DNA from: Candidatus Electrothrix yaqonensis
GTDB lineage: Bacteria > Desulfobacterota > Desulfobulbia > Desulfobulbales > Desulfobulbaceae
Assembly (NCBI GenBank): GCA_047651235.1
Contig: CP178758.1
Span: forward strand, 3,660,001 to 3,692,000
Direction: 5' to 3'
DNA: 32,000 bases
Position numbers and translations under genes: made by a program. How positions within the stretch are numbered: position 1 is the stretch's first letter; every line of letters begins with the position of its first letter. Below, in pieces: positions 10,618 through 27,673 of the stretch. The notes beneath the pieces are model-generated. The model had not been told where the DNA came from, did no database searches, and saw nothing but the letters and a program-made list of their open reading frames with translations.

Positions 10618-11366
10618 TCAATATAAATTATAAATTATTTGGTCTTTATGAACATCTGCCATGAACTTTTCATCGTTATTATCAAGTTTCCGAAGAAATT
10701 GAGAATTCTTCCCGTAAAAACCATCACAACCCACCCAGTTACAACGAACGCCATTCTTTCGCGCATGGAAAACCATGTCAAGAGCCTGCTCATGCTTTGT
10801 TTGGAAAACAATTTTATCGGCGGGAATCTTGGCCTTAAGACAACGTTCCTTGTCATCCGTCCAGCTTTTCGGTAAATACAGCCGACAGTCGATCGGCGTT
10901 GAAAAGCGACCATATCCCAAAGTTGCAAACACTACTACTTGACAGTTGTCGGTTTTACCAAGCTGCCCGCACCATTGACGAGAAACCCCAACAGACATTT
11001 TACCCTTTTTGGGTATCCCGGATTCATCAATAAAAAGAGCGCTATCTTCCTTTCCTCCAAAAATGTTATCCGCATCTTTAGCTACGTGGTTGTTTACAGG
11101 ACGCCAATCCCAGTTCGATTCGGAAAGAAAATACTGGAGGGGCTCATATTTAACGCCCGGAACCTTTTCCTCCATACGTTCCATGTTTTTTTGTCAGACT
11201 GGAATAAACCTTTCAAGTATTGGAATGCTTTATCTGACAAACTTACTGTATGTCTCTTAAAAAAGAGATGATATCTTTCGTGAAAAGACGTAAGTTGCCG
11301 GGCGATGCCGGTCAACTCAAAGAATTTGTCATGGGGACTTCTTTTTTCGGGGCTGGGAGCGTTCAT
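10618..11366 (-). pseudogene. IS701-family transposase, frameshifted and 3'-truncated. The IS remnant extends to about 11545, where composition switches to GC-rich
   Basis: Two ORFs (11094-11366 and 10618-11184) join into one IS701-type sequence: ...YLKGLFQSDKK/NMERMEEKV...WDW...FIDESG.PKKG..SVGVSRQWCG.LGK.DNCQV.V...LYLP..W. The frame break is at the T7/A7 run at 11186-11192. The protein stops at roughly 60% of the usual family length. Confidence 0.75.
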
Positions 11367-11545: not shown

Positions 11546-13652
11546 GGTGTCAGCATCAGGACCTCCCTTGCCAGTCGGCCCTGTCGCACCATCGGGGGGG
11601 CCATAAGGCCAGTTTCAGTCCCAAGGCGTGAAATGGGTGACCGCTACCCGCCAGAAGGTCGCTCCCGGAGCATACCGGCTTGCATCTCCCAAACCGGTCA
11701 CTTCATCGGCAAAGGAACCGTCATTGTTCAGATCATCCGGCGCATCGTCTCCGGTCGAATCCAAGGCATCAACAACACCATCGCTGTCCGTATCCAGCAG
11801 CTTAACCACGACACCGTTTTCAGACGGTACCCAAACCCCGCGATCCCGGTCGTAATACCCGACGGGCACGGCCTCACCAACATCGAATCCAAGGAAGTTG
11901 TCCACCCAGACTATAACCGGTTTCTCAAAGCGCACCCGTGCCGCCCCGTCCACCGAAAGTTCAGAACAATAGGTATAGGCAGAATTGGGCGGCAGTGCCG
12001 CAGGCATGGATTCTTGGGTTTTGAACTCCGTGGCCCTGGTAGTGATATTTGATAATTCCTGAATATCGTTGCCCTGCTCATCAAGCAAATACGCCTTGTT
12101 ATCGCCCTGGAAAACCATCGTCGCGGACCGGTTGCCGAACTCGTCGCTGATCTCTGTGCTTGTATGGGTCACCACTGTGTCAGGGTTGCCGTCAAAGCTG
12201 ATCGTAGTGGCGACTGGATCTTCAGTCAGTAGCTGCACAGTTTCAGCAACCGCAATATCATTCCAGGGCACAGAAACCTGACGGTGCGAGGTGATAAAAC
12301 CATCATGCGTATAGGCAAGGGTCATGGTACCGCCGCCCTCAACAGGAATGGTGAACCTGCCCTCGGTATCAGTGAGCACGGTGCCGTATTCAGGATGGCC
12401 ATGCACCGTGATCCGCACATCCGCCAGCGGCGATCCGGCCAGATTCTTTACCAGGCCGGTAATCAGGGCAAATCGTTTTTCATCGTATGCATCGACGGTC
12501 GCATCCTCAGGGACAAGGTCGTCATACTGCTCCCCATACGAGCCTTCCGGCTGCGGTTCCGGGCTGCCCGTCACCTGCACCGTCACCTGTGCGCTGACCG
12601 TGCCTTTCGTGCCTGAACCGGTAATGGTGTAGGTGGTGGTATGTTCGGGAGTTACGCTCAGAGAATCATTTGCCGCGACTGCACCGATTCCGTTGTCGAT
12701 GCTGACAGTATCAACGTTGCTGCTCTGCCAGGACAGCTCGGTGGAGGCACCGAGGGCAATGCTTTCCGGGTCTGCGGAGATTGTAATTGTGGGGCCAGCG
12801 GGTAATACTTCTACCGTGGCGGTATCCGAGGCGGTGCCGCCGGGACCGATGGCGGTAATTGTGTAAGTGGTCGCGGCAGTCGGCTGCACGGAAAACGAGC
12901 CGTTGAGATCAACCGCGCCGATGCCGTTATCAATGCTCACGGAATCAGCATTTGTGCTGGTCCAGGAAAGCTGCGAACTGCCGCCCGCTATGATGGAGGC
13001 CGGATCGGCGGACAGAGAAACCGTAGGCGGCTGAAAGACGGTGAGCGTGACGCTTTCGGTGACCGTGACGCCCGCACCGGTGGCAGTGATTGTGTAGGTG
13101 GTCGTCGCGGTCGGTGCTACGGAAACGGAGCCGTTGAGGTCAACCGGACCGATGCCGTTATCGATGCTGACAGTGTCGGCATTGTCTGACGACCAAGACA
13201 ATTCAGCGCTCTGACCCGATGCTATGGACTGAGGAGTTACCGTCAGTGCCGCAGCGGGCAGGTCTGCATCAACGGTCAGCCATTTCTTCAGGTAACTCCA
13301 GGGCTTCCTGTTGATCTTGATGTTTAAGCTGCTTTCCAGCAGATCGACCAGGAATTCCAGTGAAAAAACGTTCCGGTTGAAATCTTTGGGGGTGAATATT
13401 TCAGCCCCAAGGATCTGTACCCGGGCACTGCTGATCCGGCCTTTTCTGACTCCATCGCTGTTGCGCACATGGACGCACATGGAGACGCCCCTGTTTGGGG
13501 ATTGCTCGAAAAGAATCGTTGAAAACGTTGGGCTTCCCCGACGTACGGGTATATTTGACAGGCCCAAGGACTGTGACTTCAACGGCTTCAGAGGTGCTTA
13601 CTGAAAGCAATGCGAAAAGCGTAAACAGGAGGAAGTAGGTTGTTTTTCTCAT
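11546..13652 (-). pseudogene. Secreted Ig-like-repeat / CarboxypepD_reg / Rhs-teneurin-like N-terminal region protein, inactivated by frameshift, in-frame TGA and IS truncation
   Basis: A signal-peptide ORF (13401-13652, MRKTTYFLLFTLFALLSVSTSEA) runs in a different frame into the 655-aa ORF 11615-13582. After the TGA at 11615-11617 the same frame stays open (NWPYGPPDGATGPTGKGGPDAD) as far as the AT-rich IS701 sequence. No YD/RHS shell or toxin tip follows. Confidence 0.7.
12563..13261 (-). repeat. Three tandem ~78-aa Ig-like domain repeats (coding) within the pseudogene
   Basis: The pattern ...SA(D/T)P.SI..G.S..LSW.S.N(A/V)D(S/T)VSIDNGIG.V...(G/D)S.SV.P...TTYTIT..G..G... occurs three times in succession. 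Confidence 0.8.
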
Positions 13653-13865: not shown

Positions 13866-15695
13866 ATGAAAAACAAATCCATATCCTTCTGCGGCCAGAA
13901 CCTCGTCATCAGATATCTGCCCCAAGCTGCCACGGCTGTTGACATTGCCTTTGCCGGTTTTTCGGCAGGCAACCCGCTTGATCCGGTTGCAACGTTTGAT
14001 GTTCTGTTCGATCAGGAGACAGATTCTTTTTCTGTCACAACCGAGGGCGAAGAAATCGGCGCCGAACTGGATCTTGCTGATCTTACTCTGCTCCTCTCGG
14101 CCCGTGCAGCATATGAATTTGCCTGTACCATAACCGACGGACTGGTGATCTATGGAGCTGCTGTGCAGGCCAGCGGCGGGAGTATACTTATTCCCGGCAG
14201 GACAGAAAACAGCAGGCTCATTGCCTGGCTTGTTCAGCAGGGATACAAATATCTGACGAGCGAACTGATCTGTCTGGCGCAGAACGATCAGCTGTTCGCT
14301 TCTCTACCCTGCCCGCTTTTTATCAGACAGGAGGAGCGGCCTGTACTCGAACCGATTATCATGGAGTTCATAGCCCCGAAAAACAGCAGTCGAATACTGC
14401 GCAGCAGGACAGGCATGGTGCTCTCCTCCGGCATTCTTTCTGATGATTTTTCCGGCGAACCCGCTGCAGGGCAGCAGAAACTGGCCTTTCTTCTCTTTGC
14501 AGAGTATCAGCAAAATAGCCGCTTCTCCCTTGAGTCTGTCAGTCCGGCTCAGGCAACCGGACGGCTCATGGGATGTCTGGCAAATCATCATAAATTAGGG
14601 ACAAAAAACGTTACCCGGCTTGCCGCCCTGACCCGGCAGATTCCGGCTCTGTCTCTCCGATATGCGGACCTCGGACAGCTGGAAAACATTCTGCCGCCGA
14701 TTCTTGATTTTATCCTTGCAGCCGAAGGCACCCGGCCGAACCTGCAGCGGGCTGCGCTTAAAGCATTTTCCCGCCTGACAGCAGCAGAGCATCCGCCGCA
14801 GAAACAATTATTTCTTCTACAGCAGGCTACTCCGCCGGGGAAAAAAAGAAAAATTACCATCGGCATGGCCACCTATGATGACTTTGACGGGGTATATTTT
14901 TCTGTTCAAGCCCTGCGGATGTACCATCCTGAAATTATCGATCAATGCGAAATCCTGGTTATTGACAACCATCCGGACGGCCCCTGTGCGGAGAGTCTGA
15001 AAAAACTGGATACGTCCATTGACGGCTACCGCTATGTACCCCTGCCGGATGTGCAGGGGACAGCCGCCGGACGGAACGCCCTTTTTCAACATGCCGGGGG
15101 AGATTATGTCCTCTGTATGGACTGCCACGTTTTTCTTGTTCCGGGCGCAGTACACAAACTGGCAGAGTATTTTTCAGCCCACCCGGACAGTCCTGACCTG
15201 CTCCAGGGCCCTATGATTCACGACAATCTGAAAAGTATTTCCACCCATTTTAAACCGGTCTGGCGGGGCGGCATGTACGGCGTCTGGGGACATGACCCGC
15301 GCGGTGATGATCCTGCCGGAGAACCGTTTGATATTCCCATGCAGGGCGTCGGTCTTTTTGCCTGTCGCCGCAAGGCCTGGCCCGGATTTAATCCGAGTTT
15401 TTACGGATTCGGGGCGGACGAAGGATACATTCACGAAAAATTCCGCCAAGCTGGCGGCCGAACCCTCTGCCTGCCGTTTCTCCGCTGGCTGCACCGTTTT
15501 GACCGCCCTATGGGAGCACCCTATCCTGTCCACTGGAAAGACCGTATCCATAATTATCTGCTCGGATTCACCGAGCTCGGTTTGGATACCGCCCCGGTCA
15601 AGGACCATTTCACTAAGCTGTTGGGTGCGGAAAAAGTAGCAGCTCTCTTTAAAGAAATTGAGAAAGAAATAGCCGGTTCCCCCTCCTGCCCATGA
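13866..15695 (+). CDS. Fusion protein: N-terminal HprK-related-kinase-like domain with a degenerate P-loop, plus a C-terminal family-2 (GT-A) glycosyltransferase
   Basis: Residues ~1-300 are paralogous to the kinase at 21051-21959. Compare ISFCGQNLVIRY / IVGFCGQYVRIS, and AAVQASGGSILIPGRTENSRLIAWLVQQGYKYLTSEL / AAAVLCGKKGVLIPGNTGAGKSTFAAWLTACGCGYLTDEL. The GxGKS Walker-A is replaced by ENSR. Residues ~330-560 carry GT2 features: ITIGMATYDD, LVIDNHPDG, YVLCMDCH. Confidence 0.7.
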   Translation: MKNKSISFCGQNLVIRYLPQAATAVDIAFAGFSAGNPLDPVATFDVLFDQETDSFSVTTEGEEIGAELDLADLTLLLSARAAYEFACTITDGLVIYGAAVQASGGSILIPGRTENSRLIAWLVQQGYKYLTSELICLAQNDQLFASLPCPLFIRQEERPVLEPIIMEFIAPKNSSRILRSRTGMVLSSGILSDDFSGEPAAGQQKLAFLLFAEYQQNSRFSLESVSPAQATGRLMGCLANHHKLGTKNVTRLAALTRQIPALSLRYADLGQLENILPPILDFILAAEGTRPNLQRAALKAFSRLTAAEHPPQKQLFLLQQATPPGKKRKITIGMATYDDFDGVYFSVQALRMYHPEIIDQCEILVIDNHPDGPCAESLKKLDTSIDGYRYVPLPDVQGTAAGRNALFQHAGGDYVLCMDCHVFLVPGAVHKLAEYFSAHPDSPDLLQGPMIHDNLKSISTHFKPVWRGGMYGVWGHDPRGDDPAGEPFDIPMQGVGLFACRRKAWPGFNPSFYGFGADEGYIHEKFRQAGGRTLCLPFLRWLHRFDRPMGAPYPVHWKDRIHNYLLGFTELGLDTAPVKDHFTKLLGAEKVAALFKEIEKEIAGSPSCP

Positions 15696-15760: not shown

Positions 15761-16864
15761 TTATGTGCAGAGATTGAACAGATAGCCGGTAAAGAGAATC
15801 CCTGACCCGACCACGGCAATAAACACAGCGATCAGCTTGGGTTTGAGCACCTTGCGCAGAATCACCATTTCCGGAAGAGAGAGAGCGATAACGCTCATCA
15901 TAAAGGCCAGCACCGTGCCGAGGGCTGCGCCCTTGCCCAGCAGGGCCTCCATAACCGGAATAATCCCGGCAGCATTGGAGTACATGGGAATGCCGAGTAC
16001 GACCGCAGCAGGAACAGACCACCACTGCTCCCTCCCCATAACTGAGGCCATAAAGTCTTCCGGCACGTATCCGTGAATGGCCGCTCCGGCCGCTATTCCG
16101 GCAACCACATAGAGCCAGACTTTGCCTACGATCTCCCGGACTGCTGTCCGGCCTTGTTCCACCCGGTCGGCCCAAGTCAGTTTTTTCTCGATCACCAGCT
16201 GCTGGACATTGCGCATCTCTTGGACCCAGTCCTCAATCCAATGCTCAAGCTGCAGCCGCCCGATGACCCACCCGGCAACCACAGCAATAGTCAGACCGGA
16301 CACGAGGTAGAGCGAGGCGGTTTTCCAGCCTAACAGGCCGTACAGCAAGATCAATGCTACTTCATTGACCATGGGAGCGGCAATGAGAAACGAAAAGGTC
16401 ACACCCAGCGGTATTCCTGCCTGCACAAAGCCGAGAAAAAGCGGCACCGCCGAGCAGGAGCAGAACGGGGTGACAATCCCCAGCAGCGCGGCCAGCACAT
16501 GCCCGGCAGCCTGTCCCCGACCGGCAAGGTATTTCCGCGTCCGCTCGCGGGTAAAGAACGAACGGATCATGCCGATAAGAAAGACGACCAGGGTCAGGAG
16601 GAGCAGGACCTTGGGGGTATCATAGACAAAGAACTGCACAGCCTTGCCGAGGTGACTGCCCTCTGTAAGTCCGAGTATTCTGTAGGCAAAAAAACGGGAA
16701 AAGGGCAGCAGCTGCGAATAGAGAAGAAACCACAGGGCGAGCCCTCCTCCTGCCGCAACAATTTGGCGTATTCTGTCGGGGTACCCCTGCGTTCTGTCTT
16801 GTCCGTTTTCCTGTTTTTTTTCCTGTGCGGTACAGCCGCAGCCGATCGGTTGAAGAGGTTCCAT
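15761..16864 (-). CDS. Permease of the DUF318/ArsP-like family (YraQ-type), ArsR-associated
   Basis: 367 aa and polytopic. It has the family-typical TPFCSCSAVP motif and an N-terminal CGC. It lies 14 nt downstream of arsR on the same strand. Confidence 0.75.
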   Translation of the reverse strand: MEPLQPIGCGCTAQEKKQENGQDRTQGYPDRIRQIVAAGGGLALWFLLYSQLLPFSRFFAYRILGLTEGSHLGKAVQFFVYDTPKVLLLLTLVVFLIGMIRSFFTRERTRKYLAGRGQAAGHVLAALLGIVTPFCSCSAVPLFLGFVQAGIPLGVTFSFLIAAPMVNEVALILLYGLLGWKTASLYLVSGLTIAVVAGWVIGRLQLEHWIEDWVQEMRNVQQLVIEKKLTWADRVEQGRTAVREIVGKVWLYVVAGIAAGAAIHGYVPEDFMASVMGREQWWSVPAAVVLGIPMYSNAAGIIPVMEALLGKGAALGTVLAFMMSVIALSLPEMVILRKVLKPKLIAVFIAVVGSGILFTGYLFNLCT

Positions 16865-16878
16865 TTCCGCTCCTTCGG

Positions 16879-17223
16879 TTATTTTTGTTTGGAAGCGCGT
16901 AACGCTGCTGCATCCGGCAGGGCAGCGAGCATCTGCTGCACCGCCGAGTCATCATTCAGCCAAGCGGACAGCTGTATAAGCATGGTTTCGGCATATATTG
17001 AATCACCATCTGCCAAGCTGTAGAGAATCCATGTACCCTGCCGCCTCCGCCTGACCAGACCGGCTTCTTCAAGAATTTTCATATGCTTTGAAACCGTGGG
17101 CTGAGCCAGCCCCAAAACGTGCTGAATTTCGCAGACGCAGAGTTCATCGCGCTCCAATATTTTCAGGACTCCAACCCTGTTGGGGTCGGAAAGGGCCTTC
17201 ATGATACGGATGAATTGTTGCAT
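16879..17223 (-). CDS. arsR: ArsR/SmtB-family metalloregulatory transcriptional repressor
   Basis: 114 aa. LSDPNRVGVLKIL...ELCVCEI...LGLAQPTVSKHMKIL..AGLV..RR.G.W..Y is the canonical wHTH with the CVC metal/metalloid site. Confidence 0.9.
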   Translation of the reverse strand: MQQFIRIMKALSDPNRVGVLKILERDELCVCEIQHVLGLAQPTVSKHMKILEEAGLVRRRRQGTWILYSLADGDSIYAETMLIQLSAWLNDDSAVQQMLAALPDAAALRASKQK

Positions 17224-17562: not shown

Positions 17563-18561
17563 ATGACAGAAAAAAAATTGGAAGCCGCAAATGCACCTGA
17601 CAGCCAAAGCCGTCGGAAAACTATGAAAAAGCTGGCTGTAGGGGTCGGCGCACTGGCCGGATACAGTTCATTGCCTGAAAAATGGGTATCGCCGATCATT
17701 GAAGGCATTGTCCTTCCTGCCCACGCCCAGACATCGGCAGCGCTCTCTGTCACGAATCCGACAATGGAGCTGATCGGCGGGAGTTCCCGTACAGGTGACA
17801 TGACCCTTCGCGTAACCGGAAGTGTCTCTCCCCCCAGATCGGGGGCGGATCTGAGCTTAACCATTGAAGGGCTTACAGAAGCGACAGGATTCCATCGGCA
17901 GGAGGAGAACCGGGGAGCCTCGGGTTTTCTCGCATCTGTGGCGGATAGCCTTGTTCCGTCGGCTGAAGCCGGGTCACACAAGAAACACAAGGTAAAGGTA
18001 AAGACCGATGCCAAAGGAGCCTTTTCGGTCATCATTGTACTCCACTTCGGTCCGGGGATCGTCCTGTTGAGGTGTGCATGTAAGATTTTCGGCGTGTTTA
18101 TCGGTTATATAGGTTCTCTGGAAGTGCCGGACTGCGACCCCTGTACTACGAAAAAAGGCACCACGGACAAACCGAAGGAAACCACCACGACTGAGGCGCC
18201 AGCAGAAGAAGCGGAAGTGGAGGTGGACAACGCGGCACCATCAGCATGCGAGCTTGTCGTAACTGACACTGACGGGAAAACAGTGACCTTATCGGTCGGA
18301 AAAGACGGCGGGTCCGGGTTGGAAGCTCGGGGAAGCGTAAATAGTCTGCTGAAGAAGCTCAGATTGGAGGCTCTGGATCAGGATGCACTGGGTACGACAA
18401 CCTTTACAGTCACCTGCACATTGACCTATGAAGACCAGACAACAAACGAAGAGGTCGGCGAACTTTCTGCTTCAGATACGATATTTTCATATACCCATCA
18501 GACACCAGATGTTGTCATTGAACTGATAGTAATTTCCATTACTGAGGATTTGCCGATTTGA
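17563..18561 (+). CDS. Secreted protein of unknown family with a Tat-like signal (SRRKTMKKLAVGVGALAG ... LPAHA/QTS), two beta-rich domains and a Thr/Glu-rich linker
   Basis: 332-aa ORF with a strong SD and its own promoter and terminator. It has a twin-Arg n-region, a hydrophobic h-region and an AxA cleavage site. Motifs include KVKTDAKGAFSV (Ig/CarboxypepD_reg-like strand), a CAC...C.PC cysteine cluster and the TTKKGTTDKPKETTTTEAPAEEAE linker. Confidence 0.6.
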   Translation: MTEKKLEAANAPDSQSRRKTMKKLAVGVGALAGYSSLPEKWVSPIIEGIVLPAHAQTSAALSVTNPTMELIGGSSRTGDMTLRVTGSVSPPRSGADLSLTIEGLTEATGFHRQEENRGASGFLASVADSLVPSAEAGSHKKHKVKVKTDAKGAFSVIIVLHFGPGIVLLRCACKIFGVFIGYIGSLEVPDCDPCTTKKGTTDKPKETTTTEAPAEEAEVEVDNAAPSACELVVTDTDGKTVTLSVGKDGGSGLEARGSVNSLLKKLRLEALDQDALGTTTFTVTCTLTYEDQTTNEEVGELSASDTIFSYTHQTPDVVIELIVISITEDLPI

Positions 18562-18642: not shown

Positions 18643-18677
18643 AAGGCCGTGGTGTTCTGCTGCGGCCTTTTTTTATT
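18643..18677 (+). terminator. Rho-independent terminator for the 17563-18561 gene, sitting between convergent genes
   Basis: AAGGCCG (18643-18649) pairs with CGGCCTT (18663-18669), with extra G-U/G-C pairs inside. The hairpin is followed by TTTTTTTATT. Confidence 0.6.
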
Positions 18678-18776: not shown

Positions 18777-20585
18777 CTACCGAATCTTCCTGTACAGCGC
18801 TGCAGCAAGCGTCTTCCAGTTTCTGAGCAAGGTGAGCCGTGACTGCCGCTTTTTCAGTTCCTGACTGACCTCCAGCGGCAGATTTGCCTGCAGAAAAATA
18901 TCCCAGTAAAGTTTGATCCACCAGAAAATGTGTTTGGGATGTTCAGCCAGCAGGGCCCGCAGACGCCCCAACCGTCCTGTCGGGGCGTAATAAATCCGTA
19001 GCCACCAGTCCGGCGGCAGGAAAGTATCCCGCAGGATCGGGAGCATGCCTCTGCCTTTCTGCTCGCCCAGTTTTCGTCTCGGCCAGCCTGTGAACGATGC
19101 CCCGACTTTTTTTGGTTCTGGTTCGTTCCGCAATGATAACCGCCTGCACACGGTCTCGCTCCAGGGCGTTAAATAATGCAGGTGCGGCAGTGCTCGGAGT
19201 AGGTGGGGATATACCGATTTAATCCGGTCCCAGTCGATGGTCTCCAGCCTGCTTTCGATAAGGCTGACGATATCGGCAGCGGAGATTAGTTTATACGGAT
19301 CATAGGTGAGCGGTGCATGGAATCCATGCTGATACAGATGCCACAGCATTTCCTCATCTGCCAGAGTGTATGCTGTTACTCCGTCTGCATCAAAGGATGC
19401 TGCATTGCGGTACAGCATATCAAAGTCAACCTTTTCGGAATACGGCGGGCAGTCCGGGTAGAGATTACGGTGCAGCTCAAGACAGATCCGGATTCCATCC
19501 ATTTCCTGATAGAGCTCTGCCAAGTGCAAGTGGTCTGCTGCTGTCGGAGTACCCGGATCGAGAAAACCGTGCTTTTGCAGCAGGGCATGGGCAGGCAGGG
19601 CGTCCTTCCAAGGAAGCAGCAGATCGATATCCCGCATAGGACGCAGGCCCGGTTCCGGATACTGGGTATGACAGAGGGCTGCGCCTTTCAGGACAAGAAC
19701 CGGAAAGCCTTCACTTTCCAGCAGAGCCAATATTCTGCCCAACGCCTTGGTCAGCAGCAGATTGGTCTGCCGGTGCCTGAGACAGAGTAGTCTGAGCCTG
19801 CGGAGAAAATTGTCTGGCAGGGCAATCCCGGCAGCTGTGCAATGTCGGTGCAGCAACGGGGCCATGCCGTGCGCCTCGGCCTGCTCAAGCAGATCATCCC
19901 AGCCGCTGAAACCGGCACATGCTTTGACAAGAAGTTCCTGCTGCAGCTGATGCGGTTCGATTCTGGCGCAGAGGCTGAGAATTTGCCGTGTGATCCCAAT
20001 CCCATGCATGTTATCTGCATCCGGTTCTGCAGCCTGCTGTGCAGCGGAACAACTCACCGTCTTTTCCTGAGAATGGAGTGCTGTTCTCATAAAGTTGGGA
20101 ATATAGCGCCAATCCCCTATTTCCGGATGCACACAGACATAGGCAGGGACATCTGCGAGGCTTCCGTACTGACGATACTGGGCAAGTGCCCGATGATTGC
20201 CGTCAATAATGACCCAAGGACCGTCGGGCTGAGCGCAGATCAGTGTAAGGGCAAGCTGCGGAGATGAGCGCAGATCAACCGGCTGTTTCCCGCTCTGTTC
20301 ACTATGCGTTATAAAGGATTCAATCCTTTTTCTTGTCGAATCATCGGCCTTCTTCTGGTCAAAATCTCTTAGTCTGCCAGTATAGCCTTCAGTCCACGGA
20401 ACAAAATCGCAGTCAAGCAGATAGACGCTATCTGTGTCTTCCGGCTCCAGCATGGCTTTATATAGCTTGAATGCATCTGTCGGGGCATGACGGTCCATCT
20501 CATGACTGCCGAGCACCACGCTGGTTTCGCAGTTCTGTTCATGCTTCCGGAGTTCCTCCAGAGAAAGCGGATGAAGAATCTTCAA
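18777..20585 (-). CDS. Fusion protein: N-terminal ParB/Srx-fold-like domain (DGNHR motif) plus an uncharacterised nucleotidyltransferase (NTP_transf_5/PF14907-like)
   Basis: 602 aa with an apparent TTG start preceded by AGGGTAGGG. The N-terminal ~180 aa contain PDGPWVIIDGNHRALAQYRQYG...VPAYV (ParB/sulfiredoxin pattern G..HR..A). The rest matches the family as I remember it: GFPVLVLKGAAL....YPEPGLRPMRDIDLLLP...A...L...GF. Confidence 0.65.
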   Translation of the reverse strand: MKILHPLSLEELRKHEQNCETSVVLGSHEMDRHAPTDAFKLYKAMLEPEDTDSVYLLDCDFVPWTEGYTGRLRDFDQKKADDSTRKRIESFITHSEQSGKQPVDLRSSPQLALTLICAQPDGPWVIIDGNHRALAQYRQYGSLADVPAYVCVHPEIGDWRYIPNFMRTALHSQEKTVSCSAAQQAAEPDADNMHGIGITRQILSLCARIEPHQLQQELLVKACAGFSGWDDLLEQAEAHGMAPLLHRHCTAAGIALPDNFLRRLRLLCLRHRQTNLLLTKALGRILALLESEGFPVLVLKGAALCHTQYPEPGLRPMRDIDLLLPWKDALPAHALLQKHGFLDPGTPTAADHLHLAELYQEMDGIRICLELHRNLYPDCPPYSEKVDFDMLYRNAASFDADGVTAYTLADEEMLWHLYQHGFHAPLTYDPYKLISAADIVSLIESRLETIDWDRIKSVYPHLLRALPHLHYLTPWSETVCRRLSLRNEPEPKKVGASFTGWPRRKLGEQKGRGMLPILRDTFLPPDWWLRIYYAPTGRLGRLRALLAEHPKHIFWWIKLYWDIFLQANLPLEVSQELKKRQSRLTLLRNWKTLAAALYRKIR

Positions 20586-20630
20586 TGCCCTACCCTATGC
20601 CCTGTCCCTGCTTTGCCTGCGGCAAAGAAA

Positions 20631-20948
20631 TCAGCTGTGTTCGATAGCCGACCCCTCGGTATCGTCGTCGGCATTATCAGCGTACCGCAGGACTCCCTGG
20701 GCAAGCAGTGCGTCAAGCGCAGCAGCAATATCAGCGCTGACAGCAGATTTCTGCGCAGGAAAGGCTTCTTCCAGCAGGGCGGTCATTTCTTCCTGCGAAT
20801 GGCCTTTGTCCGCCATTGCGCAGACCAGCCGGGCTGTTTCGTTAAGGTAGACGCCTTTGCCGGTGGAAACAGCATAGAGCAGCGTTTCGCCGTCAAACTC
20901 TTCTGCTTTGAAATCAGGATTCAGAGAAAATTTTCTTGTCGGTTCCAT
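20631..20948 (-). CDS. PqqD-family protein (RiPP recognition element-type peptide chaperone)
   Basis: 105 aa. F.GETLLY...GK.VYLNETA..V....DKGHS.EEM...L.E.F......V..DI...LD.L...GVL is the PqqD/RRE pattern, followed by an acidic tail. Confidence 0.75.
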   Translation of the reverse strand: MEPTRKFSLNPDFKAEEFDGETLLYAVSTGKGVYLNETARLVCAMADKGHSQEEMTALLEEAFPAQKSAVSADIAAALDALLAQGVLRYADNADDDTEGSAIEHS

Positions 20949-21050
20949 ATGGTTTCATATGTCAGATTTGGTCATGCAGAGTTGAAAGAAACGGATACTC
21001 CGGGCTGACCGGCGTCATGCGGGGAGCAGCGTTCTGTCGTTCAGGAGAAA

Positions 21051-21959
21051 TCAGGAAAAAGTATCCCGGAAAAATTCAGGCAAAGCGTCTGCAAGCAGGG
21101 GCCGCAGCCCGGCAAAGCTCCCGTAGGTCAGCTGCAGGATCGGAACATCTCTGCTCAGCCGGGCTAAGCCGCTGATGCCGTGCCCGGGAATATTTCGCGC
21201 ATTTACATAGCATTCCATAAGCCGCGAGCAGCCTCTGCCCGGTGTTAGTTTGGTCAATTCGGTCCGGGCACCGGCCCGGAACCGGGGAAATAGGATTAAT
21301 GCCGGTCGGGGAGTCGCCGGAGTAAATGCAGGATTGAGCAGGCGATGCGGCACCATGAACCCGCTATCGCCTGTCAGTATTTTGGCGCTGTCATTGTTAA
21401 ACCGGACATACGGAGCAAGGGCCGCTGCAGCCTCCGGGCGGAGGGTGACCGGTCGGGTGAACGGCTGGATGCGGTACTCATCTCCTGAAAGGATGACCAG
21501 TTCATCGGTCAGATAGCCGCAACCGCAGGCTGTCAGCCAAGCAGCAAAGGTACTTTTCCCGGCGCCGGTGTTGCCTGGAATGAGCACGCCTTTTTTCCCG
21601 CAAAGAACCGCTGCCGCATGAACTGCCGGCCCACTGTCGTTGTTTTCCAGGCATTGAAAAATAATTTCATTGAGCAGGGCATAGGCCAGCTCCCGGCGGC
21701 ACTCCCCCTGATAGAGCAGCTCGCCTTCCCGGTGCAGGGACATCGACTCTTTCCCGGAAAAGACAAGCCTGCATTCGGCATGGGGTTTCGCATGCTGAAC
21801 GTACTGAGCGTGCTGATTGTCCTGCAGATCTGCACATAAAAAATCGACAAGGGCTGCCGCTGCCGGGCTGTTGCAGCTGATACGGACGTATTGGCCGCAG
21901 AAACCGACAATTTTATCGACACGCTCACCGGCACGACAACAGAGCGAAGTGTTATACAT
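21051..21959 (-). CDS. HprK-related kinase (HPr kinase/phosphorylase C-terminal-domain-like, intact P-loop)
   Basis: 302 aa. HAAAVLCGKKGVLIPGNTGAGKSTFAAWLTACGCGYLTDELV parallels the HprK block G.SG.GKSE.A..L...G..L..DD. An 8-nt overlap with the upstream parA-like gene is present. Confidence 0.75.
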   Translation of the reverse strand: MYNTSLCCRAGERVDKIVGFCGQYVRISCNSPAAAALVDFLCADLQDNQHAQYVQHAKPHAECRLVFSGKESMSLHREGELLYQGECRRELAYALLNEIIFQCLENNDSGPAVHAAAVLCGKKGVLIPGNTGAGKSTFAAWLTACGCGYLTDELVILSGDEYRIQPFTRPVTLRPEAAAALAPYVRFNNDSAKILTGDSGFMVPHRLLNPAFTPATPRPALILFPRFRAGARTELTKLTPGRGCSRLMECYVNARNIPGHGISGLARLSRDVPILQLTYGSFAGLRPLLADALPEFFRDTFS

Positions 21960-22986
21960 TTTTCATCATTTCATGCAGTTCTTCGGCCATCTGTTCAAAA
22001 ACTTTTCTGAAATTATCTCGGCTTTTTTTCATGGTTTCTAAAACAAATCCACCTTGTTCAAGTTGATCGTCGCCGAGTGCGAAAATAGGTACGTTAAACT
22101 TTTGAGATTGCGCAATCAGCGAATTGAAATCTGAAACATTTGCTAAATTATATGGCTCGTCATTTGCTGAATATCTCTTAAATTCTTCAGCAGTTATTGC
22201 CATCTTAATTGGTTCGAGTGCTGGAATGAGCTTACCTGAAACAGTCTTTTTAATTATGTCAATCCAGCGCTGAAAAGATTTGGCGGGAGCGCCACTTCTG
22301 GGCCTATATCTTTGTGAAATAAATCCTATGAATTTAGGTGGGATATTGGGGAGTCTATAATCTACGGTATTGCTTCTGAAAGAAGCCACATCCGTATTCC
22401 ACTTAGGGACAACACTTGAAAGTGACTTGATTGCCTGCGCACAGAAGAAATCAGGAGACGTTGGAACAATAAAATAATCGCTGGACATTAGAAGGCACTC
22501 ATTAAGTGCACCAACACTGGGACTCATATCGATTATGATATATTCAAACTCATGTTTTTCTCCCGTTATACGAAGAAGTTCACCAATACTTCCCGGTAGA
22601 TTTCTGATCGCAGGTATAGCTGTACTGGCTGTCAATGCAACGCTTACTTGCGTCTCAATCTCTGAAAGCGCCAAGTTGCCGCAATAAATAAACAGGTTGC
22701 CATTTCCTGTCGGAGCAGGGTTTCCCGGCTGAAGACCGGTCAAGCTCCCGGACATAACCGGTTGAAGCCCTGCGGAAAGGTCGCAACCAGGGTTGGTAGC
22801 ATAAAAATCCTCAATATCTTCTATAGAATTATAATCGAGGACCAAGGCAGTCAAATTACATTGTGGGTCGGCGTCAACAATCAGTGTTTTATGTCCCTGC
22901 TCCGCAAGAACCCAGCCGAGATTAAAGGCTGTGGTTGTCTTGCTTACTCCACCTTTGTGATTAAACAGTGAAATTAGTTTCATCAA
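21952..22986 (-). CDS. ParA/MinD-superfamily ATPase (deviant Walker A) with a long C-terminal extension; markedly AT-rich
   Basis: 344 aa. The N-terminus reads KLISLFNHKGGVSKTTTAFNLGWVLAEQGHKTLIVDADPQCNLT. The SD AAGGATGGAG lies 12 nt after the trpD stop. Hand counts of two 60-nt lines give ~33-37% GC, against ~70% in a trpD line. Confidence 0.85.
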   Translation of the reverse strand: MMKLISLFNHKGGVSKTTTAFNLGWVLAEQGHKTLIVDADPQCNLTALVLDYNSIEDIEDFYATNPGCDLSAGLQPVMSGSLTGLQPGNPAPTGNGNLFIYCGNLALSEIETQVSVALTASTAIPAIRNLPGSIGELLRITGEKHEFEYIIIDMSPSVGALNECLLMSSDYFIVPTSPDFFCAQAIKSLSSVVPKWNTDVASFRSNTVDYRLPNIPPKFIGFISQRYRPRSGAPAKSFQRWIDIIKKTVSGKLIPALEPIKMAITAEEFKRYSANDEPYNLANVSDFNSLIAQSQKFNVPIFALGDDQLEQGGFVLETMKKSRDNFRKVFEQMAEELHEMMKNV

Positions 22987-22998
22987 ATTTCTCCATCC

Positions 22999-24027
22999 TT
23001 AATCCGTACTGCAGAAGCTGATCAGACGGTCAAGCCGTTCCAGAGCTGCCCCGGACGCCACAACCTCCCGTGCCTGCTCCACCCCCTGACGCAGATCGTC
23101 TGCCTTTCCCGCAGCCACCAGGGCTGCTCCGGCATTGAGCAGCACCATATCCAGCCGGGCACCGGGGGTATTGCTCAACACTTCGCGTACAAGGGCGGCT
23201 GATTCCTCGGCAGTGGCGCCGCCCCGGATATCCTCCATCCCGGCCCGTGCCAGCCCGACATCCTCCGGGGTAACAGTATAGGTCTCCACCTTGCCGTCAT
23301 GGGCATCCGCCACATGGGAAGCACCGGTGACCGTCATCTCGTCCATATTACCCTCACCCCAGACCACCAGGGTTCTCTTCATCCCCAGCCTGCCCAGCAC
23401 TTCGGCAATGGGCACGGTCAGTTCCTTGGCAAAGACACCGGTGAGCTGCACATTGCTTCCGGCCGGGTTAGTCATGGGGCCGAGGATATTAAAAATCGTC
23501 CGGATCCCCAGTTCCCGCCTCGGGCCGATGGCGTGCTTCATGGCGCCGTGCAGCATGGGCGCAAACAGAAAGCCGATTCCCACCGTGCGCACGCATTCAC
23601 CCACCCGGTCTGCCGATATGGACAGGTCAACCCCCAAGGCCTCCAGCACGTCCGCACTGCCGCAGGACGACGACACGGCCCGGTTGCCGTGTTTAGCCAC
23701 CGGGATACCTGCCCCGGCCACGACAAAGGCCGTGGTGGTGGAGACGTTGAAGGTTCCGGAACCGTCGCCGCCCGTACCCACAATATCCATGAGCAGATCA
23801 GAGGCGGTATCCACGCCGGTGTCCACAAAGGTGGCCTTTTCCCGCATCACCCGGACGGCCCCGGCGATTTCGTCAATGGTCTCACCCTTCATGCGCAGGG
23901 CCGTGAGAAAGGAGCCGATCTGGGCATCCGTTGCCTGCCCGCTCATGATCTCCTGCATGACCGCAGTCATCTGCTGTTCGTCAAGGTCCCGGCCGGTCAC
24001 CACCCGGGCGATAGCTTCCTGGATCAT
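22999..24027 (-). CDS. trpD: Anthranilate phosphoribosyltransferase
   Basis: 342 aa with canonical TrpD blocks: GFLTALRMKGET, VGTGGDG..TFNVST, AKHGNRAVSS.CGSADVLEALG, GIGFLFAP..H.AMK, R.ELG.RT.FN.LGP..NPA. Confidence 0.92.
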   Translation of the reverse strand: MIQEAIARVVTGRDLDEQQMTAVMQEIMSGQATDAQIGSFLTALRMKGETIDEIAGAVRVMREKATFVDTGVDTASDLLMDIVGTGGDGSGTFNVSTTTAFVVAGAGIPVAKHGNRAVSSSCGSADVLEALGVDLSISADRVGECVRTVGIGFLFAPMLHGAMKHAIGPRRELGIRTIFNILGPMTNPAGSNVQLTGVFAKELTVPIAEVLGRLGMKRTLVVWGEGNMDEMTVTGASHVADAHDGKVETYTVTPEDVGLARAGMEDIRGGATAEESAALVREVLSNTPGARLDMVLLNAGAALVAAGKADDLRQGVEQAREVVASGAALERLDRLISFCSTD

Positions 24028-25469: not shown

Positions 25470-25847
25470 TCAGTAGTTATTCAGGTAATTATCCACTTCC
25501 CAGTCAGTGACTGCAGTACGGTAGTCATCCCATTCTTTCTCTTTGTTCTCGATGTAGTGATCGAAGATATGATCACCGAGAGTCTCTCTGGCTATCGGGT
25601 TGGCCTTGAGGGCATCGATGGCCTCCTTCAGATTGGCAGGCATGCTCTCGATACCGGCGGCTTCCTTCTCGGCCGGGGTCATTTTGAAGATATCCTGATT
25701 GACCGAATCCGGTGCTTCCAGGCTGTTTTTAACGCCGTCCAGACCTGAATTCAGCATCATGGCAAAAGCTAGGTACGGGTTGCAGGTCGGAGCAAGGATA
25801 CGGGATGGCAAGCAGGGACGGGGCAAGGTGATCACCGAATGCTCCAT
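25470..25847 (-). pseudogene. glnA: Glutamine synthetase (type I) C-terminal fragment, ~110 aa only
   Basis: CNPYLAFAMMLNSGLDG...LP.NL.EAIDAL..N......LG.HIF.HYIE.KE.EWD.YRT.V..WE...Y matches the extreme C-terminus of GSI (Bacillus-type ending). The catalytic N-terminal ~330 aa are absent. Real similarity starts at about nt 25800. Confidence 0.75.
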
Positions 25848-27340: not shown

Positions 27341-27673
27341 TCACGAGGCCTCACCATACATTTCAGAGATCAGCTTCCGCAACTGGGAAGCATCTGCTTT
27401 GGACAAAACATCAATTTTCTGCCCAAGACGAGTCTTACTGATCGTCCGTACCTGATCCACGGCGATTTCAGCTGCTCTGCCTGCACAGGAAATTTGCATC
27501 CGACTTCTCCATGTCGGATGCAACGATGAGGTCAGGGGGCAGATAACAACCGTTTCCAAATTTTTGTTCATGGGATTCTGACTGACAACAACCACTGGAC
27601 GAACCTTACATATTTCACTGCCCTGTGTCGGATTCAGGTCTGCAAAATACACTTCATAGCGTTGCACCTTCAA
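27341..27673 (-). CDS. mazF: Type II toxin, MazF/PemK-family endoribonuclease
   Basis: 110 aa. Y.V.FADLNPT.GSEI.K.RPVVVVS.N..N......V.ICPLTS is the PemK/MazF signature. It has a 4-nt overlap with the upstream antitoxin gene. Confidence 0.9.
   Translation of the reverse strand: MKVQRYEVYFADLNPTQGSEICKVRPVVVVSQNPMNKNLETVVICPLTSSLHPTWRSRMQISCAGRAAEIAVDQVRTISKTRLGQKIDVLSKADASQLRKLISEMYGEAS

Follow-up and report, generated by a model that had tools for sequence, protein, structure and literature searches.

We analyzed a window of 32,000 nucleotides from the cable bacterium Candidatus Electrothrix yaqonensis (Candidatus Electrothrix sp. YB6; contig CP178758.1, positions 3,660,001 to 3,692,000) which encodes a PqqD-family protein, an HprK-like kinase and an NTP_transf_5 nucleotidyltransferase (NTase). 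The three proteins form a widely conserved triad that occurs without a lasso peptide cyclase. By analogy with lasso peptide tailoring, and with a probability of about 0.6, the triad would perform leader-guided phospho-glycosylation of a neighbouring protein bound for export by the twin-arginine translocation (Tat) pathway. An original prediction had read the region as a trpD-linked operon with a ParA/ParB-like pair built into the cassette; the locus is a mosaic of the core cassette plus unrelated elements. The features on which the argument draws are the following (positions in the window).

21051..21959, minus strand: HprK-like P-loop kinase, 302 aa (TIGR04352, E 2.6e-19); core member
20631..20948, minus strand: PqqD-family peptide chaperone of the RRE type, 105 aa (PF05402); core member
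18777..20585, minus strand: gene of the 602-aa protein, a two-part fusion of an N-terminal domain and the NTase
18777..20009, minus strand: NTP_transf_5 domain, aa 193-602 (PF14907); core member
17563..17727, plus strand: leader of the candidate substrate, aa 1-55; twin-arginine SRRKTMKK, Gly/Ala-rich h-region, then LPEKWVSPIIEGIVLPAHA
17728..18561, plus strand: hypervariable body of the candidate substrate, aa 56-332; begins QTS, with a Thr-rich linker and VPSAEA at aa 132
18643..18669, plus strand: terminator-like 12-bp GC-rich hairpin and T-run, between the convergent candidate substrate and NTase genes
13866..15695, plus strand: pseudokinase::GT2 fusion (GT, glycosyltransferase), 609 aa (kinase alignment, PF00535); accessory member

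The window proteins were used to search a comparison set of 86 related loci (L numbers below), of which 80 were fetched with the NTase alignment and six by exact look-up; with the window this gives 87 loci. A genome scan confirmed 326 related stretches. The PqqD protein matched PF05402 with 34.6 bits (cutoff 23.4) and contains the domain of a recognition element (RRE) of RiPPs, peptides made by the ribosome and then modified after translation. The NTase matched PF14907 with 143.9 bits against a gathering cutoff of 31.2. The original calls of PqqD, NTP_transf_5 and a ParA/CbiA-type ATPase were thus supported by the profile hidden Markov models (HMMs). That of an HPr kinase stood in part: its best NCBIfam model, TIGR04352 (HprK_rel_A), gave 69.4 bits vs a cutoff of 200, and Pfam Hpr_kinase_C was barely matched (E=0.03). 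The P-loop GNTGAGKST is intact, as had been stated, and is kept together with the YLTDELV motif across 14 homologues. In the NTase, K300, G301, D319, D321, E370 and H372 are near-invariant in the homologue alignment and the DxD motif is intact. The AlphaFold2 (AF2) model of this part (confidence score pLDDT >90) has a Pol-beta-type NTase fold, closest among solved structures to ANT(2'')-Ia, LnuA and TM1012. With few exceptions, homologues of the 602-aa protein have a length of about 404 aa, and their start corresponds to its residue ~193.

The three genes are encoded together in about 60-70 related loci from several phyla; kinase homologues were found in about 70 of the 86, and the PqqD HMM matched 73 of the 87 loci. 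Two fixed gene orders were observed, PqqD-kinase-NTase in Desulfobulbales (E. aestuarii among them, where no ParA gene accompanies the three) and NTase-PqqD-kinase in Chloroflexota and others. The triad without lasso core enzymes, as originally proposed, is therefore a real, co-conserved cassette, and both the GT2 fusion and the Tat protein of the earlier description do co-occur with it. No match for the cassette proteins was obtained with PADLOC. Full-text literature queries on PF14907, HprK-related kinase, HPr-rel-A, and RRE with HPr kinase gave lasso-peptide papers only and no paper on the free-standing trio, and there is no mention of the locus in the YB6 genome paper.

The closest characterized precedent is found in lasso peptide biosynthesis, where PadeK (paeninodin) and PsmK phosphorylate a Ser of the lasso precursor (PMC8498205, PMC6993621). 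PsmN, an uncharacterised NTP transferase annotated as NTP_transf_5-type, is needed (catalytic D134/D136) for the addition of a +162 Da hexose (PMC6993621), and one or two hexoses are carried on the phosphate; a resemblance to ANT(2'')-Ia and LnuA, as for the NTase here, has been reported for PsmN. These tailoring sets (PadeK; PsmK/PsmN with a B1 RRE) share with the cassette an HprK-like Ser kinase, an NTP_transf_5-type transferase and a PqqD-like RRE. However, the cassette comes without a cyclase or a short precursor, and the proteins proposed as its substrates measure 130-330 aa and carry a Tat-type leader. An Asn-synthetase-like cyclase was found neither among the scanned window open reading frames (ORFs) nor among the recurrent neighbour clusters or the top Pfam families of the 74 nearest large neighbours. 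A transglutaminase-like B2 protease was likewise not found among the scanned window ORFs, in agreement with the earlier statement that both enzymes are absent from the window. Among the related loci, no recurrent cluster of ~140 aa besides PqqD was seen, the small neighbours not having been scanned singly with Pfam. A lasso cyclase beside orthologous triads, which would have placed the locus in a described RiPP class, did not appear among the recurrent neighbour clusters of the 87 loci. Kinase stop and pqqD start are 102 nt apart, and the pqqD stop lies 45 nt from the TTG of the 602-aa gene; no plausible small precursor ORF was found inside either gap.

Two further systems contain related proteins. 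The HPr-rel-A system (TIGR04352 and TIGR04353, PqqD_rel_X), which we take to have been named from context only, shares the same gene trio and provides the best NCBIfam model for the kinase. However, the window kinase reaches 69 bits and seven related-locus kinases 82-107 bits where the cutoff is 200, and the window PqqD scores 20.4 bits vs the TIGR04353 cutoff of 35 (L079 23.2, L081 28.3, L041 no match). With both proteins far under the NCBIfam cutoffs, the HPr-rel-A label used in the original prediction is not strictly applicable. The cassette is a sister of both HPr-rel-A and PsmK/PsmN, and belongs to neither. The SynChlorMet proteins ScmC and ScmD also are a pair of an HprK-like and a PqqD-like protein, and homologous kinases have weak precomputed Pfam ScmC matches, but TIGR04249 gave 17 bits against a cutoff of 125 and no radical-SAM/SPASM partner was seen by the triad. 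Matches to TIGR04224 in the model scan were noise.

The gene that faces the triad encodes a convergent protein of 332 aa (17563-18561, plus strand), for which tblastn gave matches in most loci, confined to the first ~60 residues. This region is a leader of ~55 aa with the consensus [ST]RRxxLK, a Gly/Ala-rich stretch, LPxKWxKPV[IV]E and then [VA]LP[AV]HAQ[TV]S. It aligns essentially gap-free across Desulfobulbales, Chloroflexota, Verrucomicrobiota, Lentisphaerota, Acidobacteriota and Gamma-/Betaproteobacteria, and is followed by bodies of 80-280 aa which are unrelated between phyla. When a leader HMM was applied, the family was found in 53 of the 87 loci at a median distance of 169 nt from the triad (no more than 500 nt in 39 of the 53). 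This adjacency is too consistent for chance. Judged from the sequence, the 332-aa protein is probably the substrate of the triad; the original prediction had seen a 'Tat protein' but did not recognise it in this role. The window leader has SRRKTMKK, an h-region and an AHA site. The TIGR01409 TAT signal model (cutoff 16.7) was passed by the leader proteins of L047 (24.9 bits) and L065 (18.9 bits). No family model covers the part beyond the Tat motif, and no published description of the leader was found in the full-text search. A Ser/Thr at +3 after AHA is near-universal in the family. A C-terminal Ser, which we considered as the kinase target, was rejected as unconserved, being present in only two of 56 adjacent leader proteins.

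Two observations concern individual leader proteins. In E. aestuarii (L001, CP159373.1, 8412-13329), three leader paralogues of 299-311 aa and tatA lie downstream of PqqD-kinase-NTase. An internal motif, [LIV]P[SA]A[HE]A, occurs in seven members including the window protein (VPSAEA, aa 132). In its longer form, [LIV][VI]P[SA]A[HE]A, it is located ~40-85 aa past the leader LPAHA, resembles the end of the leader, and is common to Electrothrix and gammaproteobacterial members with otherwise unrelated bodies (window protein, L001 paralogues, L074 and L075). A role as a second site of recognition or cleavage is possible.

A reverse test was made with a degenerate leader DNA pattern against metagenome contigs; at least 120 contigs, most of them short, were matched. 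All 120 of 120 matches were true leader-HMM hits, and 32 of the 120 contigs carry a triad gene (three of the six whose flanks reach 3 kb or more on each side). Several 'orphan' leader genes in these contigs lie beside giant GT28/GT1-GT2-GT32-(GT2 or Anp1) proteins. The leader family is thus larger than the set adjacent to the triad, which fits one processing system for several substrates.

Glycosyltransferases are the other recurrent companions of the triad. The N-terminal domain of the pseudokinase::GT2 fusion gives a full-length alignment with the kinase (27 % identity, E 3e-21). In place of an intact P-loop it has the degenerate GRTE--NSR, and it lacks the Asp of the TDELV motif; the GT2 part matches PF00535 with 50.9 bits. 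The fusion lies 3082 nt beyond the operon end, and its earlier description as a kinase paralogue about 3 kb away was correct. Orthologous fusions, some of which gain GT25 or sulfotransferase, adjoin the triad in eight Desulfobulbales loci (L006, L010, L012, L015, L023, L025, L054 and L064), and multi-glycosyltransferase giants are its neighbours in other phyla. When the 74 nearest large neighbours were examined with Pfam, GT32, GT2, Anp1 and GT1-like were the only recurrent specific families. In Verrucomicrobiota and Lentisphaerota (L043:11382-15332 and L055:3098-6076), a giant protein stands at the kinase position, with the kinase fused to a fucose pyrophosphorylase and a GHMP kinase.

The giant of L043 and L055 looks like a built-in sugar-activation module. 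Giant single polypeptides with GT28/GT1-like, GT2, GT32 (DXD) and Anp1/GT62-like parts adjoin leader genes in the metagenome contigs L130, L132 and L140 and in L034, L040, L069, L074-L076 and L086; some contigs with such a giant and a leader gene carry no triad. In the window, an ArsR-family regulator and an ArsP_1/SaoE-like permease (15761-17223, minus strand) lie between the pseudokinase::GT2 and candidate substrate genes, and in relatives such as L064 the latter two genes adjoin directly.

Gene content, conservation and synteny as given above were observed; binding, site, chemistry and export in the following scheme are inferred from analogy and synteny. The triad would act on the convergent 332-aa protein, and probably on further proteins with the same ~55-aa leader. 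The substrate would be made with a Tat-type leader consisting of SRRxxLK, a Gly/Ala-rich h-region and LPxKWxKPVxE...LPAHA|QTS. PqqD may bind the LPxKW...LPAHA part in the way RREs bind RiPP leaders, retain the protein in the cytoplasm and recruit the enzymes. The kinase would then phosphorylate a Ser/Thr, for which the near-invariant Ser at +3 after AHA (S58) is the best candidate, and the NTase would place hexose(s) or a nucleotidyl group on the phosphate, as PsmN does on the phospho-Ser of pseudomycoidin. The pseudokinase::GT2 protein may dock through its dead kinase-like domain and lengthen the glycan, after which the modified, folded protein would exit by Tat and be cleaved after AHA.

Several results weigh against this scheme. 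In 34 of the 87 loci there is no leader gene within reach, and 13 of these have full 10-kb flanks; conversely, several long metagenome contigs carry a leader gene without the triad. E. communis-type loci have PqqD and NTase only (and no ParA), so that the kinase is dispensable in some lineages. The nearest relatives of the NTase fold are small-molecule O-nucleotidyltransferases, with which a non-protein substrate is possible. TIGR01409 gave 14.8 bits on the window protein, under its cutoff of 16.7, and tatA, which was sought in all loci, was found only in L001; Tat export is predicted from the motif. The modified residue is a guess; the kinases of the lasso precedent target a C-terminal Ser that is unconserved here.

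The same genes may be explained in other ways. The kinase and NTase could be orphan lasso-type RiPP tailoring enzymes which modify a small peptide encoded elsewhere, with the leader protein unrelated to them. The same three protein types do tailor paeninodin and pseudomycoidin, and PqqD weakly matches lasso PqqD models. However, neither an Asn-synthetase-like cyclase nor a B2 protease nor a small ORF was found among the recurrent neighbour clusters of the 87 loci, the window gaps hold no small ORF, and the leader protein adjoins the triad too regularly for chance; since the C-terminal Ser is also unconserved, we consider this improbable. A non-protein target such as an envelope glycan, a lipid or a small molecule, with the leader proteins being only co-regulated secreted partners or acceptors of the glycosyltransferases, appears rather unlikely to us. 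It would agree with the antibiotic nucleotidyltransferases among the nearest solved NTase folds, with the weak match of one kinase homologue to the FomB phosphonate kinase model and with the plentiful glycosyltransferases and sugar-activating enzymes of the neighbourhoods. Yet PqqD/RRE is a peptide-binding module co-conserved with the enzymes, a conserved leader in front of a variable body is the signature of a recognised substrate, and PsmN, of the same Pfam family as the NTase, works on a peptide.

The leader could also be merely an unusual Tat/Sec signal peptide, in which case PqqD would be a chaperone for Tat proofreading and the enzymes would serve another role. The twin-arginine motif, the AHA cleavage-type site and the presence of tatA among the three E. 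aestuarii paralogues speak for this, but the LPxKWxKPVxE block between h-region and AHA is conserved far beyond the needs of a signal peptide, some bodies have a second, internal VPSAHA-like motif, and the link to glycosyltransferases persists where the triad is absent. We regard this explanation as unlikely. Tat proofreading chaperones, the redox enzyme maturation proteins of the TorD/DmsD/NapD type, are small cytoplasmic proteins that bind a Tat signal peptide and delay export until maturation. The PqqD/RRE fold is unrelated to theirs, and maturation here would be a covalent modification and not the insertion of a cofactor.

Leader-guided phospho-glycosylation would place the triad in a wider frame. 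The one setting in which PqqD, an HprK-like kinase and NTP_transf_5 have so far been characterised together is the tailoring of lasso peptides. In the cassette, a conserved leader and a variable core were found in an adjacent candidate substrate, as in RRE-dependent (RiPP-like) systems; the core is atypical in being an entire protein. We tentatively suggest, at somewhat less than even odds, a widespread system in which an RRE (PqqD) reads a dedicated ~55-aa Tat-type leader on whole proteins and has them phospho-glycosylated in the cytoplasm, ahead of Tat export, by a kinase, an NTP_transf_5 enzyme and glycosyltransferases, one cassette serving several dispersed substrates. In the last point it would be like 'tag plus processing enzyme' sorting systems. 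The serine-rich repeat adhesins are comparable: these secreted proteins with an extended signal are glycosylated in the cytoplasm by neighbouring glycosyltransferases (GtfA/B) and leave by the accessory Sec system. In contrast, the cassette has a Tat-motif route and other enzymes (RRE, kinase and NTase). The system occurs in Desulfobulbales (cable bacteria among them), in Chloroflexota, Verrucomicrobiota and Acidobacteriota and in Proteobacteria, and the leader proteins are a concrete substrate candidate with a likely site (Ser +3 after AHA) and a likely product (a phospho-glycan). If true, RiPP-style leader recognition would extend to full-length Tat-exported proteins, and a cytoplasmic glycosylation route would be added to bacterial secretion.

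Inspection of the window ORFs gave the minus strand order trpD, ParA-like gene, kinase, pqqD and 602-aa gene. The remaining features of this stretch are the following.

22999..24027, minus strand: trpD, anthranilate phosphoribosyltransferase (TIGR01245, 408 bits); neighbour, non-member
21952..22983, minus strand: ParA-like ATPase, 343 aa (AAA_31, CbiA); passenger, non-member
20061..20585, minus strand: 'DGNHR' N-terminal domain of the 602-aa protein, aa 1-175; probable ParB/sulfiredoxin-like fold; rare accessory fusion

The four minus-strand ORFs first described downstream of trpD are all present at their coordinates, and the spacings given for them were confirmed in the case of the 8-nt overlap and the ~100-nt (102) and 45-nt gaps. 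The 12-nt gap before the ParA-like gene is corrected to a likely 15 nt. The trpD stop is at 22999-23001, which leaves 12 nt to a TTG at 22986 and 15 nt to an ATG at 22983, with GGAG 7 nt upstream of the latter; ATG 22983 is the likelier start because the NCBI protein and all homologues have 343 aa.

The ParA-like protein matched AAA_31 (94.5 bits), CbiA (54 bits) and phrog_164 (ParA-like partition protein, E 6e-51), with KGGVSKTT intact; it reached 59 bits vs the 180-bit cutoff of ParA_partition, and PADLOC gave only a weak match to the P-loop of PDC-M28B. The gene was found in none of the 86 related loci, not even in AR4 (L005) and L006 which share the N-terminal domain of the 602-aa protein, and trpD is not nearby in any of the 86. 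The GC content of the ParA-like gene is 41.6 %, compared with 51-63 % for its neighbours (trpD 62.8 %, kinase 57.1 %). Its product shares 87 % amino acid identity with proteins of Syntrophotalea carbinolica, Halomonas and Prosthecochloris, which belong to unrelated phyla, and 63-66 % with relatives in Citrobacter, Vibrio, Aeromonas and Pseudomonas. The nucleotide identity to S. carbinolica (80 %) is confined exactly to the ORF (22983..21951). Elsewhere the homologues are solitary, by a DDE transposase or in the cargo slots of P4-like satellites, or stand on plasmids of Pantoea, with umuC, an Abi gene and an integrase as neighbours; no cassette was found near them in the examined contexts.

The ParA-like gene is a horizontally acquired passenger and not a cassette member, and trpD is an incidental upstream neighbour, a bystander. 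The ParA stop and the kinase start overlap as ATGTATAA at 21952-21959, and the kinase ATG (21959) sits within the native last codons of the ParA-like gene (AAA AAT GTA TAA). The apparent translational coupling of the two genes is thus a by-product of insertion: the ParA-like gene came in by horizontal transfer, and the start codon of the kinase is now provided by its 3' end. In every host the gene is low in GC and behaves like a gene-sized mobile unit (window; L087, L090-L093, L219); a defence or plasmid-related role of its own is possible.

The original headline, in which the ParA-like ATPase and the ParB/Srx-like domain are a functional pair in an RRE cassette (one that might, for instance, put the modification machinery in place), with trpD to NTase as one system, is largely refuted by synteny, and we consider it very improbable. 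The tight spacing (15-nt gap and 8-nt overlap), the intact Walker A of ParA and the ParB/Srx-like fold of the N-terminal domain had favoured such a pair. Against them stand the absence of the ParA-like gene from the 86 loci, even those with the N-terminal domain, its low GC, its cross-phylum identity with ORF-exact nucleotide similarity, the mobile contexts of its homologues without a cassette, and an N-terminal domain that has neither a helix-turn-helix (HTH) nor a Pfam ParBc match. With ParABS systems the locus shares a ParA-like gene with a deviant Walker A and the phrog_164 match, and an N-terminal domain in the ParB/Srx fold class, but the HTH of ParB, a ParBc match and any co-conservation of ParA with the domain (0/86) are lacking. 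The proposed link of the operon to trpD falls with its absence from the related loci. Tight spacing and a stop/start overlap are thus no proof of shared function, as a transferred gene-sized ParA fits seamlessly into an apparent operon.

The N-terminal domain of the 602-aa protein (aa 1-175) had no Pfam, NCBIfam or PHROG match, and its sequence-profile search against PDB gave noise only. Its fusion to the NTase was found in three assemblies only (YB6, Electrothrix AR4 with P0121 at 62 % identity, and P0075 at 52 %), and its HMM matches three of the 87 cassette loci. An exhaustive HMMER search gave a family of 105 cluster representatives, mostly free-standing proteins of ~165 aa, in which D128, G129, H131, R132 and H153 show little or no variation. 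In the AF2 model (pLDDT 96.8), strand 124-128 passes into helix 130-140 at VIIDGNHRALA, which fits the nucleotide-binding strand-(D/G)GxHR-helix motif of ParB/Srx. The top 27 Foldseek matches in PDB are all of the ParB/Srx fold (sulfiredoxin, KorB, ParB, Noc, free serine kinase and 1vk1 among them) but non-significant (E 0.2-1.7, TM-score 0.2-0.3); against BFVD, ParB/sulfiredoxin-domain proteins dominate, with a best E of 2.9e-3 and a probability of 0.97. A ParB/Srx-like fold, as originally called, is therefore likely, at borderline scores. The domain may be an occasional nucleotide-binding add-on.

That the domain is a chance open frame or a frameshift artefact was rejected, given 62 % and 52 % identity in two assemblies and more than 100 free-standing relatives; that it is a regular part of the cassette was also rejected, given three of 87 loci and heterogeneous contexts elsewhere. 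Free-standing relatives occur in unrelated contexts, such as an island of the CBASS defence system or beside a molybdopterin oxidoreductase, and one adjoins a GT2/GT25 gene facing the triad. In L094 (8001-8510), a free-standing DGNHR member lies by a CBASS pair (CD-NTase and Cap15) and an NYN-domain gene, and the family may also sit in defence islands.

The window region is a mosaic, given the remnants of insertion sequences in it: an IS4/5-type DUF4096 fragment at 843-1178 and a truncated DDE_5 transposase at 10618-11184 (both minus strand). A 655-aa protein (11615-13582, minus strand) has three tandem Ig-like-looking repeats of ~95 aa (SADP..LSW.S.NAD.VSIDNGIG) and a teneurin-TTR/CarboxypepD_reg domain; it ends beside the truncated transposase and may be truncated too. 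By eye, two further minus-strand ORFs were noted, one of 125 aa (25470-25847) which resembles the C-terminal end of glutamine synthetase and is maybe a gene fragment, and one of 110 aa (27341-27673) with the look of a PemK/MazF-type toxin.

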